Of a stretch of 64,000 bases of DNA, positions 6,183 through 12,420 are shown one piece after another. The notes beneath the pieces are model-generated. The model worked only from the letters and a program-made list of their open reading frames with translations. It had not been told where the DNA came from and searched no databases. This DNA comes from Candidatus Kaiserbacteria bacterium. GTDB taxonomy: Bacteria > Patescibacteriota > Minisyncoccia > Phycocordibacterales > JABMNX01. The stretch is taken from positions 20,811 through 84,810 of the forward strand of contig JACPLB010000002.1 in assembly GCA_016186705.1 (NCBI GenBank), read 5' to 3'. How positions within the stretch are numbered: position 1 is the first letter of the stretch; each line of letters opens with the position of its first letter. A program made the position numbers and the translations under genes.

Positions 6183-6269
6183 TGCTCTCTAGCGTAGCAT
6201 TTTCTGAACTAAAAACGGAGAAAAGTGGGTTGATATCTTTATGATAGTTAATCGTGAAGTCCAATCTAG

Positions 6270-6343
6270 TGCACGCACCAGGACTCGAACCTGGGACCTT
6301 CTCAACGTCAATGAGACGCTCTAGCCAACTGAGCTATGCGTGC
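6270..6343 (-). tRNA. tRNA-Val(GAC)
   Basis: The reverse complement folds as a cloverleaf with acceptor stem GCACGCA/TGCGTGC. The anticodon loop is TTGACGT. CCA is not encoded. Confidence 0.85.
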
Positions 6344-6459
6344 GCTCCGATTAGAGTGCACAAATTCTGCAAAAAGGTCAACGGAACTGGCGGGCTACCT
6401 CAAGCTACCTGTCCGACCCTGGAGGAGAACTCTGGTGAATCAAGCCCCGTAAGGCTATT

Positions 6460-7590
6460 CTAGCCCTTTTCCAAAGTTAAACCGAAGGTTCCCTGTGCGC
6501 CTTTTTTCAAGAGTTCTCTTTGTGACCTTTTAAACGCATTTTCGACAATATCCCAATATTGTTGAGAATTAACTTTCTCAAGATGCTCTTTTGGCCAATC
6601 GTTTCCATATGCATCCCATTTTAATTCCTTAAATTTCAAGCCATTTCCAAAATACTTTATCTTCGAGTACGTTTCTTTTCTAATAGAAACATTGTATGCA
6701 CTAGAAAACGTTACTGCTATATCATAAGTAAATTCATTATATCCCCAATAAGGTTCTCCAATATCACCATAAAGTATGGGATTGAAAACAAAGAAAAACA
6801 TTTGCAGTTTCTTGCCTCGGAATTTATAGACATCAAACTCACCTATAGTTGTAGACCACCCATAAAAATCATCGATATCAAAAAATCGCTCATTTAAATT
6901 TGCCATATTGCTCACAACTCCTATAAGATTAAAAACAAGCGATTTATCTTTTGAGTCATAGATGAAGAACCAATACTTATAACCCCTTAGTTCAATATCC
7001 GAAAGAATCTTAATTGGTCGTTTTTCTTTTGGATCATGCCGTTCAAATATTGATCTATCTCTTGGATTGAAATCTACTCGAAAATTTGCGCATTCCGCTA
7101 ATCCAGAAGGGCTCAACCCATAGTTTTTTGCTAAATATTCCCATTCGGTAATTTTACGAGGAGAAGGAGTATGTATTGTAAATGCCACTATCATTAAAAT
7201 CAAAATAACCGTTATATAAATTGCAAAGATTAGAAGTCCCGTATTATAGAAAATATAGGACAAAATATTTTCTTCACTAGGAATTGTGGCTAGAAACAAA
7301 AAGAAAGCCGCCAAACCCGTGGTTATTCCTCCCCAAACCAAAAAACGAATCGATTGTCTTATCTCTTGGTGTCTTAATTTATAGTCTTTTAGAATATCAG
7401 TAATTTGTTTTCTCTGTTCCTTCCTTTTGTTGTCACTTTTTTCTTCTAAAAATGATTTTGGTTTTATCAGTCTCCTTAGTCTTGCTCGAAACTCTCTTAA
7501 ATCTTTTAAGGATGGCACTATAAAAAGCGAGAATATGAAAGTATATAAGGCAAAGGTTGCGATTGTAAAAATAGGTGTATAAAGCTCCAT
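6460..7590 (-). CDS. Island gene A: membrane protein with 4 predicted TM helices and a ~220-aa aromatic-rich soluble C-terminal domain; no recognisable family
   Basis: AT-rich ORF, about 33% GC. The likely start is MELYTPIF; the track offers an alternative start at 7668. TM helices are followed by a W/Y/F-rich domain with no motif I recognise. Confidence 0.6.
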   Translation of the reverse strand: MELYTPIFTIATFALYTFIFSLFIVPSLKDLREFRARLRRLIKPKSFLEEKSDNKRKEQRKQITDILKDYKLRHQEIRQSIRFLVWGGITTGLAAFFLFLATIPSEENILSYIFYNTGLLIFAIYITVILILMIVAFTIHTPSPRKITEWEYLAKNYGLSPSGLAECANFRVDFNPRDRSIFERHDPKEKRPIKILSDIELRGYKYWFFIYDSKDKSLVFNLIGVVSNMANLNERFFDIDDFYGWSTTIGEFDVYKFRGKKLQMFFFVFNPILYGDIGEPYWGYNEFTYDIAVTFSSAYNVSIRKETYSKIKYFGNGLKFKELKWDAYGNDWPKEHLEKVNSQQYWDIVENAFKRSQRELLKKGAQGTFGLTLEKG

Positions 7591-7847
7591 AAACTTAATT
7601 AAGCACCTCGTGCTAGCTGTTAGATGCGGGGACGATTGCCGGAACTTTGAACCGAAAGCATGGCTCAAATTCGAGGATCTTGATAAAAGTATACAGAAAT
7701 TAAGGGCTATCTACAAAGTTCATCCAGAATGGTTTGAGGTACCAAAGCCTAAATCAAACAGAGGCAAGAGTGAAATTGATTATTCAGTATCTTGAGTAAT
7801 TGTTATGCCTCAATAGTTGACTCCTATACAGATTAAAGATTTTTATC

Positions 7848-9158
7848 TTAATCAATCTTAAAACCCTTCTTTTGCTGTTCTTTAAGAATTTTTTCGTATA
7901 TTCCACCTTTTCCATAAGGCACTCTTACGGGCATATCAATCTTGCATTCGATATTAGGTACTGTTCCCTTATGGGGAACTGGAATTTGAATATCGCCTTC
8001 TTCCATAAGAAGTTTTGCTAATTCAGCAACGTCATACTCTACAGTGCCAAGAGTTTCATCTTTTTTATCACCAAACATATGAATAATTACTTTGGGAATC
8101 TTACTTTTATCAAGATGCATGAGACAGCACTTCACGATATTAAGCATTTGATATTCATATTTGACTGATTCCTCTAGATGAACGATATCGTAAGCTTCTG
8201 CGGTGCCGAAAAATATTTGCTCATTTCTTCCGATGATTGGAGGATCGTATTTAAGTGATATTTCAAGTACTGTTCTATCATTATCTAATTTGAATTCTTT
8301 CAAAAGAAAACTGCGATTAGTCGCAAAGGACTCGGCTATTTCCTTGATTTCTCGAATTTTGTATACACGCTTGCTAACTATTTTTGCTTCAACGTCAGGA
8401 TTATTTTCCAAAAAGATTAGAAGTCCATTTCTTAAAATCCAGAGGTTAACTCTGCATGTTTGCAGAATGTCTCTTAGTTGTCTTTGCGTGAATTCATAGC
8501 GCTTCTTTTCTTTACCACTTTTATCATCAACCACCTTAAGGACAACCGTCTTATTATCAGTTGTTTCCCATCTATCGTGTCCGGCCCCAGCGTTACGTAT
8601 ATGGTTATCAAAGCCAGAGACTAGGTCCGGAAAATTACCATTCGGTAATGAAAAAGAGGTATTTTTTATCGTTTGAAATTTTTCTCCCGCTGAGACATCA
8701 ACAAACATCTCTGCATCTTTAACAGCATGAGTTTTGCCGTACTTTTTACATAGATAAAAGTATGGGGTCGTTCCATACAACCTAAAGTCACTCTCAAAAA
8801 GAGTTTTATATAAGCTCAACTGACAAGAGAAAATTGTTTCAAGCTCAGAACCTTTCAAAGCACTATAAAGAGAATCTTCGGCCTGTTCCGTCCGCAGACC
8901 GGAATCATTTGCAGTATCGATTATTGTACTAACAACTTGAAGGAATTCTGCCTCATTTTCTTTATATAATTGTTCACACAGTTCCTCGATAAATTTTGTT
9001 GCTTTGAGATCTTTCTGCTGAACAGAATGTCTCCAACCGAGCCAGCCTTGCTGAAAGAAATACCTTACATTCTTTGGTCGTTTGTTTGGATGCTTTAAAA
9101 GTGGTTGGATATAGACTTCAAAATATCTACTTTCTGCCGCTAAGTTTGAATCAAGCAT
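7848..9158 (-). CDS. Island gene B: 436-aa hypothetical protein with a candidate HEPN-like Rx5H motif
   Basis: AT-rich ORF. Contains FDNHIRNAGAGHDRWE, i.e. R-N-x4-H, which is compatible with the HEPN Rx4-6H signature. The start ATG overlaps the upstream gene's TGA by 8 nt. Confidence 0.6.
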   Translation of the reverse strand: MLDSNLAAESRYFEVYIQPLLKHPNKRPKNVRYFFQQGWLGWRHSVQQKDLKATKFIEELCEQLYKENEAEFLQVVSTIIDTANDSGLRTEQAEDSLYSALKGSELETIFSCQLSLYKTLFESDFRLYGTTPYFYLCKKYGKTHAVKDAEMFVDVSAGEKFQTIKNTSFSLPNGNFPDLVSGFDNHIRNAGAGHDRWETTDNKTVVLKVVDDKSGKEKKRYEFTQRQLRDILQTCRVNLWILRNGLLIFLENNPDVEAKIVSKRVYKIREIKEIAESFATNRSFLLKEFKLDNDRTVLEISLKYDPPIIGRNEQIFFGTAEAYDIVHLEESVKYEYQMLNIVKCCLMHLDKSKIPKVIIHMFGDKKDETLGTVEYDVAELAKLLMEEGDIQIPVPHKGTVPNIECKIDMPVRVPYGKGGIYEKILKEQQKKGFKID

Positions 9159-9867
9159 TGTTCTTTACTCTATACTCTAAAAGTAAGTACGAATTTTCGA
9201 GTGGCCTTGCCTGGATAAATTCAAGGGCCTTTATTTTTTTGAGTTCTCCCGAAGTATGTAACGATTCCCCATCCATTAAAGTCGATGTATTTTTGCCACC
9301 AATGAGAGCGGGAGCAACTACCAACCAAACACGATCAATTAAACCTTCTCGCACCAAGGTGGTATTTAAAGTTCCACCTGATTGAATTGTGAGTTTGTCA
9401 GCCCCGAAATCTTGTTTCAGTATCGTAAACAAATCATTGAAATCTACAACTTCTCCATATTCAAAAACGTAGAGGTTGTCAAAATCATTTTTGAGAGATA
9501 CTGCTGGATGATTTTTGTTTGTTGTAGCAATGATAAGATTCTTTGCTTTCTTCGCAAGATATGAGATTCCTTGAGCGGTGAGGTGTGGCTCGTTATCGAT
9601 AACCACAAAACTTACTGGTAATTTCTTCGGTTCATCTTTTTTCTCATTCATTCCAATCTTCGCAAAGACTCTTCCCGTGTTAAGGGAAAACAGGTCAGTT
9701 TGTTGCTCTAGATCGTAGTATTGTTGTAAACCTTCTTTGATACCTGAAATTTTAGGGAAATCCTTATCCACATCTAAAACATCGCTATCGCCAGTCGAGA
9801 TTTTGCCATCGACAGACATAAGCATGAATAGTGTTGTGTCCGGTCTGTTTTTATCTTTATTTTCCAT
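9151..9867 (-). CDS. Island gene C: RibD C-terminal domain / dihydrofolate-reductase-like family protein
   Basis: LFMLMSVDGKIS at the N-terminus, and GLIDRVWLVVAPALIGG ... YLLLEYRV at the C-terminus. These are typical of pfam RibD_C / YwjB-like reductases. Confidence 0.75.
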   Translation of the reverse strand: MENKDKNRPDTTLFMLMSVDGKISTGDSDVLDVDKDFPKISGIKEGLQQYYDLEQQTDLFSLNTGRVFAKIGMNEKKDEPKKLPVSFVVIDNEPHLTAQGISYLAKKAKNLIIATTNKNHPAVSLKNDFDNLYVFEYGEVVDFNDLFTILKQDFGADKLTIQSGGTLNTTLVREGLIDRVWLVVAPALIGGKNTSTLMDGESLHTSGELKKIKALEFIQARPLENSYLLLEYRVKNNA

Positions 9868-9886
9868 AGGTTCAAAGTTGCCAATC

Positions 9887-9976
9887 TGGCGGAGAGGGAG
9901 AGATTCGAACTCTCGATGCGGTTTCCCGCATGCCGGTTTTCGAAACCGGTGCCTTCAACCACTCAGCCACCTCTCC
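9887..9976 (-). tRNA. tRNA-Ser(CGA)
   Basis: Reverse complement is GGAGAGGTGGCTGAGTGGTTGAAGGCACCGGTTTCGAAAACCGG...CTCTCCGCCA. It has a long variable arm and encodes CCA. It closely resembles E. coli tRNA-Ser. Confidence 0.9.
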
Positions 9977-10263: not shown

Positions 10264-11061
10264 CTAGGAGGGCGACTGAACTTTCTGCCGTGTGGTTTTT
10301 GCTTTGAGGTCTTCCATGATGGAATTGTATTGAGTTTCCGCGTCTTCTTCCAGCCGACCTTTTATTTCCTTCATGATCGAGGCGAATTCGTCCCGTGCGC
10401 GCCGCCATGTCTCATTCCAGAGGTCATGCCCGAAGAATTCTTGTATTTTCTCCAGGCGCTCTGGAGTGATTTTAGTCCGACCGTCGAGCAAGGCGCTGAT
10501 ATTGTTAGAAGAAAGACGATATGCAAGGTCTCTCTTTTTCTTCGTTCGCGCCTTGCCTTCGAAAAGAAGGTGGAGCGTGAGAATCGTCCTTTTCTTGATT
10601 ATGTCGAACCCGTTGAACCTTCGCAGGTCTCGGTGAGTAGAAAAAATTCGAGATCCTTTACATATTCTTTTTCGCCTGACAGTGCGTCGTGGCACTTGAG
10701 AGGTGCCCATGGAAGAATTGGGCTTGGAAACCTTCCTTGTGTCCGGCATTGGCACTACCCGCGTCTCGATTTTCCGTGAAGGCACTGCCTTGAAATTTTC
10801 ATGCACGATACGCTCGCCGTTGATGTCTGATTTCCCGAGCAGGAAGTCTGTCGCAACCTCAAGTGTCCAGGCAAAACTAGCGCATTCAACAATCGTCAAA
10901 CCGCCGTGCCCTCGCTTGAGATTGCTGTACCGGTCGCTGAGGACCTCTATGAGGTTTTTCCCACATCTCTTTGCCGCTTCTTCGAGACGAGGCCATACAT
11001 CCCTTGCGGAGACGGCCCACATCCCTTCCCTCATTTCCTTCTCCAAGGATTTATGGGCCAT
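10264..11061 (-). CDS. Hypothetical protein with a C-terminal XRE-like helix-turn-helix
   Basis: The C-terminus LAYRLSSNNISALLDGRTKITPERLEKIQEFFG is Cro/C1-like. I moved the start to MAHKSLEKEM because the longer track ORF would overlap tsaD. Confidence 0.45.
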   Translation of the reverse strand: MAHKSLEKEMREGMWAVSARDVWPRLEEAAKRCGKNLIEVLSDRYSNLKRGHGGLTIVECASFAWTLEVATDFLLGKSDINGERIVHENFKAVPSRKIETRVVPMPDTRKVSKPNSSMGTSQVPRRTVRRKRICKGSRIFSTHRDLRRFNGFDIIKKRTILTLHLLFEGKARTKKKRDLAYRLSSNNISALLDGRTKITPERLEKIQEFFGHDLWNETWRRARDEFASIMKEIKGRLEEDAETQYNSIMEDLKAKTTRQKVQSPS

Positions 11062-11196
11062 CGGACTACTCCTTGTCTCCCAAAATGTTGAAGAACATTC
11101 CCGCCATGCGGGAAGAACTTGAAAGACTATAGTACGAACCGCTCCGTGCCGCAAGACTTGAAAAAATGCCGGATATAGCGAAGGATAGAGGTACCT

Positions 11197-12420
11197 ATGC
11201 GTATTCTTGCAATTGAAACGAGTTGTGACGAAACGGCAGTGAGCTTGATTGAAGCAAAAGGACCTTTCGGCGCTATGTCTTTTACTATTCTCGGGAACTC
11301 TCTCCTCTCCCAGATTGAGCTTCATAAAGAATTCGGAGGCGTGTATCCCTCACTCGCAAAACGTGAGCACTCAAAAAATCTCGTTCCGCTTCTCCAAAAC
11401 ACTCTTTTTGAAGCGAGGATGTTTGAACAGACGCTCTCCCCGCTCTCCAAGAACGAGATCGGCACATTAAAGGAGCTTCTCTCGCGCGAGCCGGAGCTTT
11501 TTGTGCTTTTGATAGCGTTTCTCTCAAACGTGAAGAAGCCTGATGTAGATGTAATCGCGGTAACGCATGGACCGGGGCTTGAGCCGACGCTCTGGGTTGG
11601 CATTAATTTCGCAAAAGCTCTCTCGTCCGTCTGGAATATTCCTCTTATGCCGATTAACCACATGGAAGGGCACATTGTTTCAGCCGCTCTGAAACAGCTT
11701 TTAGAAAACAGCCCGAAACCCGCAGAAAAAATAAAGGGGGTCAAAACAATACAGCACTACGCGCTTGAAGATATTGATTTTCCCGCGCTTGCGCTTCTCA
11801 TCTCCGGCGGCCACACCCAGCTTGTCCTTGTACGAAAATGGGGAGCATACGAGATTGTGGGCGAGACGCGGGACGACGCCGTTGGTGAAGCGTTTGACAA
11901 GGTTGCCCGCATGCTTGAACTTCCCTATCCCGGAGGCCCTGAAATTTCAAAGCTTGCGGAATCGGCGCGGGAGGAAAATCTTGAACATCCGTACTCACTT
12001 CCTCGTCCGATGATAGACATAAATGATTTCAATTTTTCATTCTCCGGACTTAAAACAGCGGCTCTCTACCTCATACGCAAAAAAGGGACGCTTAACGAGA
12101 CGGATAAAAAGCAGATTGCGCGGGAATTTGAGAACGCAGTCGCCGATGTGCTCCTTGTGAAAACAAAACGCGCGATTGACACGTACGGCATACGAACGCT
12201 TCTCGTCGGCGGAGGAGTCTCTGCAAACAAACATGTCCGCTACACGCTTGAAACGCACCTCAAGAGGACGCACCTGGACATTGAGACATACATCCCGAGG
12301 AAGGAGTTGACGGGCGACAACGCTATCATGATAGCGGTCGCGGCATATCTCCGGAGGATGCTGAAAAAGGGAACGCCAAGCATAAAGACCATTGTCGCGC
12401 AAGGCAACGCGAGGATATAA
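11197..12420 (+). CDS. tsaD: tRNA N6-adenosine threonylcarbamoyltransferase TsaD/Kae1
   Basis: MRILAIETSCDETAVSL at the N-terminus and an INHMEGH metal-binding motif. Confidence 0.9.
   Translation: MRILAIETSCDETAVSLIEAKGPFGAMSFTILGNSLLSQIELHKEFGGVYPSLAKREHSKNLVPLLQNTLFEARMFEQTLSPLSKNEIGTLKELLSREPELFVLLIAFLSNVKKPDVDVIAVTHGPGLEPTLWVGINFAKALSSVWNIPLMPINHMEGHIVSAALKQLLENSPKPAEKIKGVKTIQHYALEDIDFPALALLISGGHTQLVLVRKWGAYEIVGETRDDAVGEAFDKVARMLELPYPGGPEISKLAESAREENLEHPYSLPRPMIDINDFNFSFSGLKTAALYLIRKKGTLNETDKKQIAREFENAVADVLLVKTKRAIDTYGIRTLLVGGGVSANKHVRYTLETHLKRTHLDIETYIPRKELTGDNAIMIAVAAYLRRMLKKGTPSIKTIVAQGNARI

Follow-up and report, generated by a model that had tools for sequence, protein, structure and literature searches.

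A gene on the minus strand of a 64,000-nucleotide stretch of contig JACPLB010000002.1 from a Candidatus Kaiserbacteria bacterium (the whole of this stretch is called the window below) encodes a protein of 436 amino acids (aa), which we interpret with moderate confidence as belonging to a new HEPN-like RNase family whose members work as one-gene effectors of the defence or toxin kind, travel as mobile cargo and have a C-terminal domain that is likely a regulator. The N-terminal domain of the protein is predicted to be mostly helical and probably carries an HEPN-type active-site signature, with an Ex3R motif in one helix and an R-N-x4-H motif ending another. The protein belongs to an unannotated family of ~430-aa proteins from Paceibacteria-type candidate-phyla bacteria; this family is described in none of the libraries that we searched, and a full-text literature search yielded no description of it. 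Its signature and its genomic context are both typical of a very common class of conflict nucleases.

Conservation of the R-N-x4-H motif

The original prediction, which was made from the DNA sequence by itself, had drawn attention to an HEPN-like R-N-x4-H motif in the middle of this ATG-initiated open reading frame (ORF), and both the coordinates and the translation agree with it: residues 183-198 read FDNHIRNAGAGHDRWE, R188 is encoded at 8595-8597 with N189 directly following, and H194 is encoded at 8577-8579. The codon positions also agree with the remark that the spacing, Rx5H, is one residue longer than that of the commonest form, Rx4H. The accompanying caution that a single motif is weak evidence was well placed, since among 5000 shuffles of the window protein a match to Rx4-6H appeared in 70% and a match to RNx3-5H in 4.6%. 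It is from conservation across the family that the motif takes its significance.

A word-indexed search returned 26 relatives (38-95% identical), all of them metagenomic and one named as Candidatus Paceibacterota, and an exhaustive profile search of 1.84 billion representatives returned 97 clusters, 70 of them at E ≤ 1e-30. The length of the protein is 400-460 aa in 65 of the 95 cluster sequences that were retrieved. Close relatives occur in only three of 185,579 species genomes in GTDB, belonging to Ca. Vogelbacteria, Ca. Paceibacterota and a Parcubacteria-group bacterium. The copy in the window is intact, the ratio of nonsynonymous to synonymous substitution rates (dN/dS) against its relatives is 0.04-0.15, and the gene is real and under purifying selection.

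Conservation of the motif among homologues had been named as a check on the original prediction, and here the result was favourable. Over 72 diverse members of the family, which are 16-46% identical to the window protein, R188 is kept in every sequence and is the sole invariant residue; N189 is kept in 69 of the 72, with histidine in the remaining three, and H194 is kept in nearly all. Y117 (70/72), E122 (69/72), K160, N189 and H194 are each conserved in at least 90% of these members, and position 126 is arginine or lysine in 63. The R-N-x4-H block is the best conserved part of the protein, and in an alignment of 23 close homologues the sequence GFDNxIRNAGxGHDxW is essentially invariant; the same close sequences share FFGTAEAYD and RVPYG blocks in the C-terminal region. 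Most family members have the spacing RNxGxGH (Rx5H), and some ten among the most divergent ones have the textbook form hRNxxxH (Rx4H), as in IRNAIAH, IRNSIAH and LRNSAAH.

Catalytic HEPN domains are characterized by Rx4-6H with N, D or H after the arginine, the motif standing where helix 3 terminates, and by a second acidic residue, usually within Ex3[KR], in helix 2, with inserts placed between helices 2 and 3 (PMC3710099). Rx4-6H with a polar residue after the arginine is found across the present family, as is the upstream Ex3[KR], formed by E122 and R/K126 in a helix (residues 106-128) before the insert.

Predicted structure

The full-length AlphaFold2 model (m8e481a552e31) has a predicted local distance difference test score (pLDDT) of 85 and a predicted template modelling score (pTM) of 0.76, and a model of the N-terminal domain (mff56c9eca277, residues 1-282), made with the 72-sequence alignment, has a pLDDT of 95.9 and a pTM of 0.92. 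DSSP assigns helices to residues 69-101, 106-128, 185-193 and 225-252 of the N-terminal domain and strands to residues 197-199, 205-210 and 217-223. In this model E122 and R126 lie in the long helix 106-128; short helices then span residues 130-180, including K160, and the conserved GFDN turn leads into helix 185-193, which contains R188 and N189 and is followed immediately by H194 as the first residue past its end. The motif is therefore at the C-terminal end of a core helix, in terms of secondary structure only, and that helix is short. The three-stranded beta insert at residues 197-223, which is highly charged and not hydrophobic, comes after the motif and is followed by a 28-residue helix (225-252). 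In the full-length model the remaining residues, 283-436, fold into an alpha/beta domain of their own, which may serve in sensing or regulation and for which neither a Pfam nor a fold match was found.

The linear order of these modelled elements fits the published HEPN layout, and in the HEPN domain of Csx1 a beta-hairpin comes right after the motif (PMC3710099). The all-alpha HEPN-like fold that the original prediction had looked to was not recovered: the protein is not all alpha, as a beta insert follows the motif and the C-terminal domain is alpha/beta.

A pore-forming toxin was considered and rejected. The top Foldseek entries were flagellins, helical toxins of the ClyA/Hbl/MakA type and IpaD, with TM-scores of ~0.2, and the beta insert is charged.

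Possible homology to HEPN families

The weak homology signals that were obtained are all centred on the motif. The sole match to an HEPN family in Pfam was that of one member, P0115, to PF18736 (pEK499_p136), with an E value of 0.037 and a score (14.2 bits) that falls far short of the gathering threshold (26.6 bits); the match spans residues 202-265 of P0115, including RNAIAH at 205-210, and the window protein gives no match to this family. For profile-profile comparison with hhalign, test alignments were built of two HEPN families, Ymh from a gene neighbouring the homologue at locus L003 and pEK499_p136 from plasmid NC_013122. The subgroup of members with the classical motif aligned with pEK499_p136 over RNxxxH and the following strand (P 7.3e-4, probability 26%) and with Ymh motif to motif (P 0.33), and the whole family aligned with Ymh so that IRNAGAGHD fell on IRNP-KGHE, which was not significant (P 0.26). 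One of the four comparisons is suggestive, and even this best profile-profile match stays unproven as homology.

A number of results weigh against our interpretation. The window protein had no match in Pfam, NCBIfam, PADLOC or PHROGs, none of the 72 members scored above threshold against Pfam with hmmscan, and both sequence and profile searches of the PDB were empty. The remaining hhalign comparison, of the whole family with pEK499_p136, aligned the two elsewhere and not at the motifs (P 0.09). A structural match to HEPN folds, which had also been named as a check, was not obtained with Foldseek, where the best E values were 0.29 for the full-length model against the PDB, 1.7 for the N-terminal domain against the PDB and 0.4 for the N-terminal domain against BFVD, none of them significant, and such HEPN entries as appeared did not rise above the noise (E 6.9 for 7ae6_B, E 2.3 for A0A8S5PB65). 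The helix that holds R188 has nine residues and comes after the conserved GFDN turn, unlike the long helix 3 of a textbook HEPN domain. Furthermore, no antitoxin-like partner or other regulator is evident, searches of IMG/VR, GenBank phages and PLSDB plasmids gave no member of the family, and the support that guilt by association lends (see below) is indirect.

The match tests being mostly negative and one hhalign comparison suggestive, HEPN homology is thus suggested, not demonstrated. The earlier proposal of a possible HEPN RNase holds in so far as the motifs are conserved and their helix setting fits, but no significant sequence, profile or structure link to HEPN proteins was found.

Comparison with known HEPN systems

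The family resembles the HEPN superfamily (PMC3710099) in having R-[N/H]-x3-4-H, an Ex3[R/K] placed upstream within a helix, a motif located at a helix end and inserts between core helices, and in its restriction-modification and mobile-element neighbourhoods. It differs in that there is no significant profile or fold match, most members have the glycine-rich Rx5H (RNAGxGH) and the motif helix is short. Its domain is also ~280 aa, whereas a minimal HEPN domain has ~110-150 aa. The pEK499_p136 family (PF18736) is the only one that gives any signal, and it also occurs with restriction-modification genes (PMC3710099); its proteins, however, have ~160 aa, come from Proteobacteria and plasmids and are without the C-terminal domain. 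Ymh (PF09509) and EC042_2821/DUF3644 share the restriction-modification operon setting, with members lying a few kb from the gene in L003 and L004, and hhalign places the Ymh motif on that of the present family as described above, but the alignment is not significant (P 0.26-0.33) and sizes and architectures differ.

HepS, an 'HEPN solo' anticodon nuclease for abortive infection in the Gifsy-1 prophage (PMC13043305), offers a parallel of another kind, and solo HEPN defence proteins on prophages are known from HepS and from Butters gp57r. HepS is likewise a single-gene HEPN-type protein on an integrated element, has no antitoxin and is presumed inactive until triggered; its homologues, however, have less than 250 aa, use Rx4H (R100-H105), form tetramers and share no sequence similarity with the window protein, which has an extra alpha/beta domain. 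Proteins of the Csx1/Csm6 type also combine an HEPN domain with a second, regulatory domain. Here, in contrast, there is neither a CARF domain nor a CRISPR-Cas neighbourhood, the HEPN-like part is N-terminal and there is no fold match. As for pairs of HEPN and minimal nucleotidyltransferase (MNT), no adjacent MNT antitoxin was found, the window neighbours being a RibD_C reductase and a membrane protein, and no nucleotidyltransferase family is recorded for the genes adjoining the homologues.

Homologues next to tRNA genes and serine recombinases

The genes of homologues were examined in ~19 independent contexts. Immediately upstream there is a tRNA gene in L003 (Gln), L004 (Ser-gga), L005 (Arg), L007 (where the contig stops within it), L008 (Ser-gct), L018 (Ser) and L026 (Gln), and in the window and L019 a tRNA-Ser gene lies upstream with one or two cargo genes between, so that a tRNA gene is found upstream in ~9 contexts overall. 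The next gene on the 3' side encodes an intact, convergently oriented large serine recombinase with Resolvase, Recombinase and Zn_ribbon_recom domains in L002, L003, L004, L005, L007, L008, L017 and L029. The gaps between gene and recombinase range from +81 to -23 nucleotides (nt), and the stop codons sometimes overlap. L020 keeps a remnant of the recombinase and in L012 it is one gene away, which gives ~10 contexts in all.

Restriction-modification or DNA methylase genes are present in the fetched flanks of ~10 of the 19 contexts. An Eco57I-type enzyme is encoded directly upstream in L028, a type I system with a Ymh HEPN gene lies nearby in L003, and an MvaI/BcnI-family endonuclease with a convergent methylase, which has a LexA DNA-binding domain and an S24 peptidase fused to it, directly precedes the gene in L019 (3370-5969) and L023 (35-2634), in a Ca. 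Vogelbacteria genome. LexA-fused methylases are also found in L004. Phage-like genes, including a faint terminase match and a ParB-methylase, lie beyond the recombinase in L007 and L002, and in L009 the gene stands by itself, flanked by efp and rpsR. A divergent subclade has, after the HEPN-like gene and overlapping it by 4 nt, an ORF of 282-284 aa (L001 9365-10219 and L012 9311-10159); the two encoded proteins are 53% identical and have no Pfam family, and they may be partners (antitoxin, sensor or effector) without a counterpart in the clade of the window protein.

When the HEPN-like genes are compared with the recombinases that they adjoin, the two appear to have separate histories. The GC content at third codon positions (GC3) of the HEPN-like gene ranges from 0.22 to 0.47 and in most loci does not exceed that of the genes around it; for the recombinase it is higher, at 0.38-0.74. 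The pairwise identities of the two genes are uncorrelated (Spearman 0.08). In L002, L003 and L007 a conserved upstream block accompanies the gene; between L002 and L003 a 43-nt upstream block, with a hairpin plus T-run and a -10-like box, is 88% identical and the recombinases are 72% identical, whereas the HEPN-like proteins are only 43% identical. This combination of a shared block and shared recombinases with divergent HEPN-like proteins points to cassette swapping within the element. Judged from these comparisons, the gene is apparently exchangeable cargo in a slot between the tRNA-adjacent end of the element and the recombinase. Variable cargo beside an integrase is given as the common pattern of temperate-element defence hotspots (PMC13586616).

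It was also considered that the gene might be the attachment site (attB) targeted by recombinase-bearing elements. This is less likely: the gene has foreign GC3 in most loci examined, it follows tRNA genes of several identities, and in L002, L003 and L007 element-type sequence stands on both sides of it, with the gene itself being swapped.

The low-GC island in the window

The gene is part of an island, as originally predicted, and this island is low in GC. GC content over ~6350-9880 is 0.35-0.40, against ~0.50 in the flanks, and returns to ~0.47-0.53 below 6000; the three island genes have GC3 values of 0.30-0.35 (0.30 for the HEPN-like gene), against 0.55-0.62 for the flanking genes, which by eye we take to be those for FtsA, FtsZ, thioredoxin reductase, TsaD, ValRS, LepA and MurJ. 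The features of the island are listed in Table 1.

Table 1. Position of the HEPN-like gene, its predicted domains and motifs, and the neighbouring features of the island (window coordinates)
Feature	Position	Strand	Basis and remarks
HEPN-like protein gene	7848..9158	minus	436 aa, ATG start, stop codon 7848-7850
N-terminal domain, predicted mostly helical, residues 1-282, with catalytic-type signature	8313..9158	minus	AlphaFold2 model
E122-x3-R126, matching the HEPN Ex3[KR] motif	8781..8795	minus	Conservation and placement in helix 106-128
Conserved block G182-FDNHIRNAGAGHDRW-E198	8565..8615	minus	Holds R188, N189 and H194 (codons 8577-8597)
Predicted three-stranded beta insert, residues 197-223, between motif and helix 225-252	8490..8570	minus	DSSP, both models
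Predicted C-terminal alpha/beta domain, residues 283-436	7851..8312	minus	Full-length model
RibD_C-family reductase (pyrimidine reductase / dihydrofolate reductase fold), upstream neighbour	9151..9867	minus	Pfam PF01872, E 1.5e-19
tRNA-Ser(cga), upstream island boundary	9887-9976	minus	ARAGORN and Rfam
tRNA-Val(gac), other island boundary	6269-6343	minus	ARAGORN and Rfam
Membrane protein ORF, 402 aa	6460..7668	minus	~3 predicted N-terminal transmembrane helices (by eye)
3' remnant of a convergent gene, ~57 codons	7626..7795	plus	Similarity to L013-L016 and L019

The tRNA-Ser(cga) gene has its 3' end 20 nt before the start of the RibD_C gene, whose product has archaeal and bacterial pyrimidine reductases (2azn, 5xv5 and 6p8c) as relatives in the PDB. 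The RibD_C ORF terminates in AACAATGCTTGA, and its junction with the HEPN-like gene reads ATGCTTGA. The original prediction had described the start ATG (9156-9158) as overlapping the upstream TGA (9151-9153), and the HEPN-like gene as translationally coupled to that for the dihydrofolate reductase-like protein. The two ORFs do overlap by 8 nt, but the two codons share no base, and the overlap, compatible as it is with coupling, is no proof of it; by tblastn the RibD_C gene is beside a homologue in none of the ~19 other contexts.

On the other side of the HEPN-like gene, the membrane-protein gene (GC3 0.30) encodes a soluble C-terminal part of ~230 aa; its true start is likely the ATG at 7590, because the similarity to other loci ends at 7626. 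The protein has no family in Pfam, NCBIfam, PADLOC or PHROGs, and the gene adjoins no homologue of the HEPN-like gene at any of the loci (tblastn). Between the two genes, the relatives closest to the window gene tell where the similarity stops. Nucleotide identity is 93% to L013-L016 and 89% to L019; the similarity starts at the HEPN-like ATG in L013-L016 and 6 nt inside the gene in L019, and at the other end it extends 222 nt beyond the stop codon. This conserved tail was considered as a recombinase remnant, which was ruled out, as it is the tail of another, convergent gene: the convergent ORF has at least 105 aa in L014-L016, and the window keeps 57 codons of it within the ORF 7610..7795, with a peptide that ends in FEPKAWLKFEDLDKSIQKLRAIYKVHPEWFEVPKPKSNRGKSEIDYSVS at the stop codon. 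Since this leftover of an unrelated, convergent gene stands between the genes for the HEPN-like protein and the membrane protein, the junction of these two is a rearrangement scar. The island is thus a mosaic, and the 8-nt overlap with the RibD_C gene is a local junction and not a conserved operon.

By tblastn the window contains no serine recombinase. No att-like direct repeats of the tRNA 3' ends were found, which is uninformative for serine recombinases, and a promoter scan of the island did no better than chance.

Proposed function and alternative explanations

If the protein is an HEPN-like effector, it would be a metal-independent RNase acting as a stand-alone abortive-infection or toxin-type effector, with its gene as exchangeable cargo at that edge of integrated elements which is nearest the tRNA. 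If it works like other HEPN enzymes, a pair of subunits would join their R-N-H motifs to cut RNA (tRNA, rRNA or mRNA), and the enzyme would be kept inactive by the C-terminal alpha/beta domain until that domain senses a trigger. RNase chemistry, dimerisation, triggering and a defence role are all proposed here by extension from characterised solo HEPN proteins, HepS among them, and from the way in which HEPN enzymes work in general.

The R-N-x-H and E-x3-R motifs might instead resemble those of HEPN proteins by convergence, in a different and undescribed fold belonging to some other nuclease, hydrolase or transferase that acts on nucleotides or nucleic acid, which would still be a conflict or defence gene. 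We regard this as unlikely, since two independent HEPN hallmarks are combined in the order and secondary-structure setting expected of them, the divergent members revert to textbook RNxxxH, and such weak database signals as there are point only to HEPN and are centred on the motif. It is consistent, on the other hand, with the finding that the N-terminal domain, for all the high scores of its model, has no Foldseek neighbour in the PDB or BFVD, with the lack of significance in the whole-family profile comparisons with two genuine HEPN families, with a motif helix that is short and preceded by the conserved GFDN turn, and with the nearly invariant Y117, K160 and N252, which fall outside the HEPN definition. 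A quite improbable explanation is that the protein is the partner of the adjacent large serine recombinase, either as a directionality or excision factor or as a persistence nuclease, the window copy being an orphan. The eight loci with an intact convergent recombinase directly 3', the remnant in L020 and the recombinase one gene away in L012 argue for such a partnership, and so does the persistence of the pairing where the HEPN-like proteins are only 43-46% identical. Yet about half of the contexts, the window among them, are without a recombinase while the gene is intact and under purifying selection, the pairwise identities do not correlate, and the GC3 values of gene and recombinase differ strongly (for example 0.35 and 0.66 in L008, 0.40 and 0.74 in L005), as would not be expected of a co-evolving pair. 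To our knowledge, directionality factors are also not expected to carry an invariant catalytic-type motif. Variable integrase-adjacent cargo is, moreover, the usual pattern of defence hotspots in temperate elements (PMC13586616).

We give little credence to a related view, according to which the HEPN-like protein and the large serine recombinase constitute a two-gene mobile module of candidate-phyla bacteria. The nuclease would then serve the element and not host defence, whether by killing after segregation, by homing or retention, or by controlling how the element integrates and excises, and L008, with its succession of tRNA-Ser, gene and recombinase and its overlapping stop codons, would come close to the minimal form. 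Highly improbable, finally, is a functional three-gene operon in the window that unites the HEPN-like gene with those for the RibD_C reductase and the membrane protein, for instance as a system linked to a nucleotide or cofactor in which the reductase could make or remove a signal and the membrane protein could be an effector. The 8-nt overlap of the RibD_C and HEPN-like ORFs, the common strand of all three genes and their shared low GC3 (0.30-0.35) would be expected of such an operon, but neither neighbour stands beside the homologues in the ~19 contexts, which include relatives with 95% and 91% protein identity. The similarity of these relatives at the nucleotide level sets in at the ATG or no more than 7 nt from it. 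In the window the convergent remnant lies between the HEPN-like gene and that for the membrane protein, and no other genome in the collections searched has the trio.

Should the interpretation as HEPN-like effectors be true, the family would be an unannotated one of HEPN-type RNases with a large helical domain, a beta insert after a glycine-rich Rx5H motif and a novel C-terminal domain, and it would enlarge the repertoire of defence and mobile-element genes in candidate-phyla (Patescibacteria) bacteria. With the standard catalogues PADLOC, Pfam and NCBIfam, no product of the three island genes was recognised as part of a defence system, and against PADLOC-DB 2.0 none of the three had a match at E ≤ 1. 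The recurrent cargo slot, after a tRNA gene and beside a large serine recombinase, is one at which divergent alleles of the family appear to be swapped, and it could therefore be mined for further defence genes. The concept itself would be no surprise, as HEPN nucleases are among the commonest effectors of defence islands and prophages.

Additional observations

The upstream non-coding block occupies 2938-3037 in L002, 6700-6794 in L003 and 127-222 in L007. It consists, in order, of GCATACCTGCTGAGAGCAGTA, an A-run, a hairpin and a T-run, which together are terminator-like, and then TGTTAAAAT. The block could be the element end or att region together with a promoter.

The GC3 of the recombinase gene exceeds that of the adjoining genes in L003 (0.38), L005 (0.74) and L017 (0.63), and in L008 (0.66) it matches the GC-rich flank, whereas the GC3 of the HEPN-like gene in these four loci is no higher than that of the other genes; the HEPN-like gene and the recombinase gene thus have opposite GC3 biases within a 2.7-kb pair. 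LOOT RNA (Rfam RF03000, 68-86 bits) was detected in L002 (10068-10195), L007 (2992-3115) and L028 (10787-10906), and in L007 it lies just past the 5' end of the serine recombinase gene.

Elsewhere in the window, a 353-aa ORF on the minus strand (10264-11325) has no Pfam match and contains, by eye, two segments resembling helix-turn-helix motifs. It overlaps the start of the TsaD-like gene (11197) by ~130 nt and adjoins a tRNA-Glu gene, and it is a candidate gene only.

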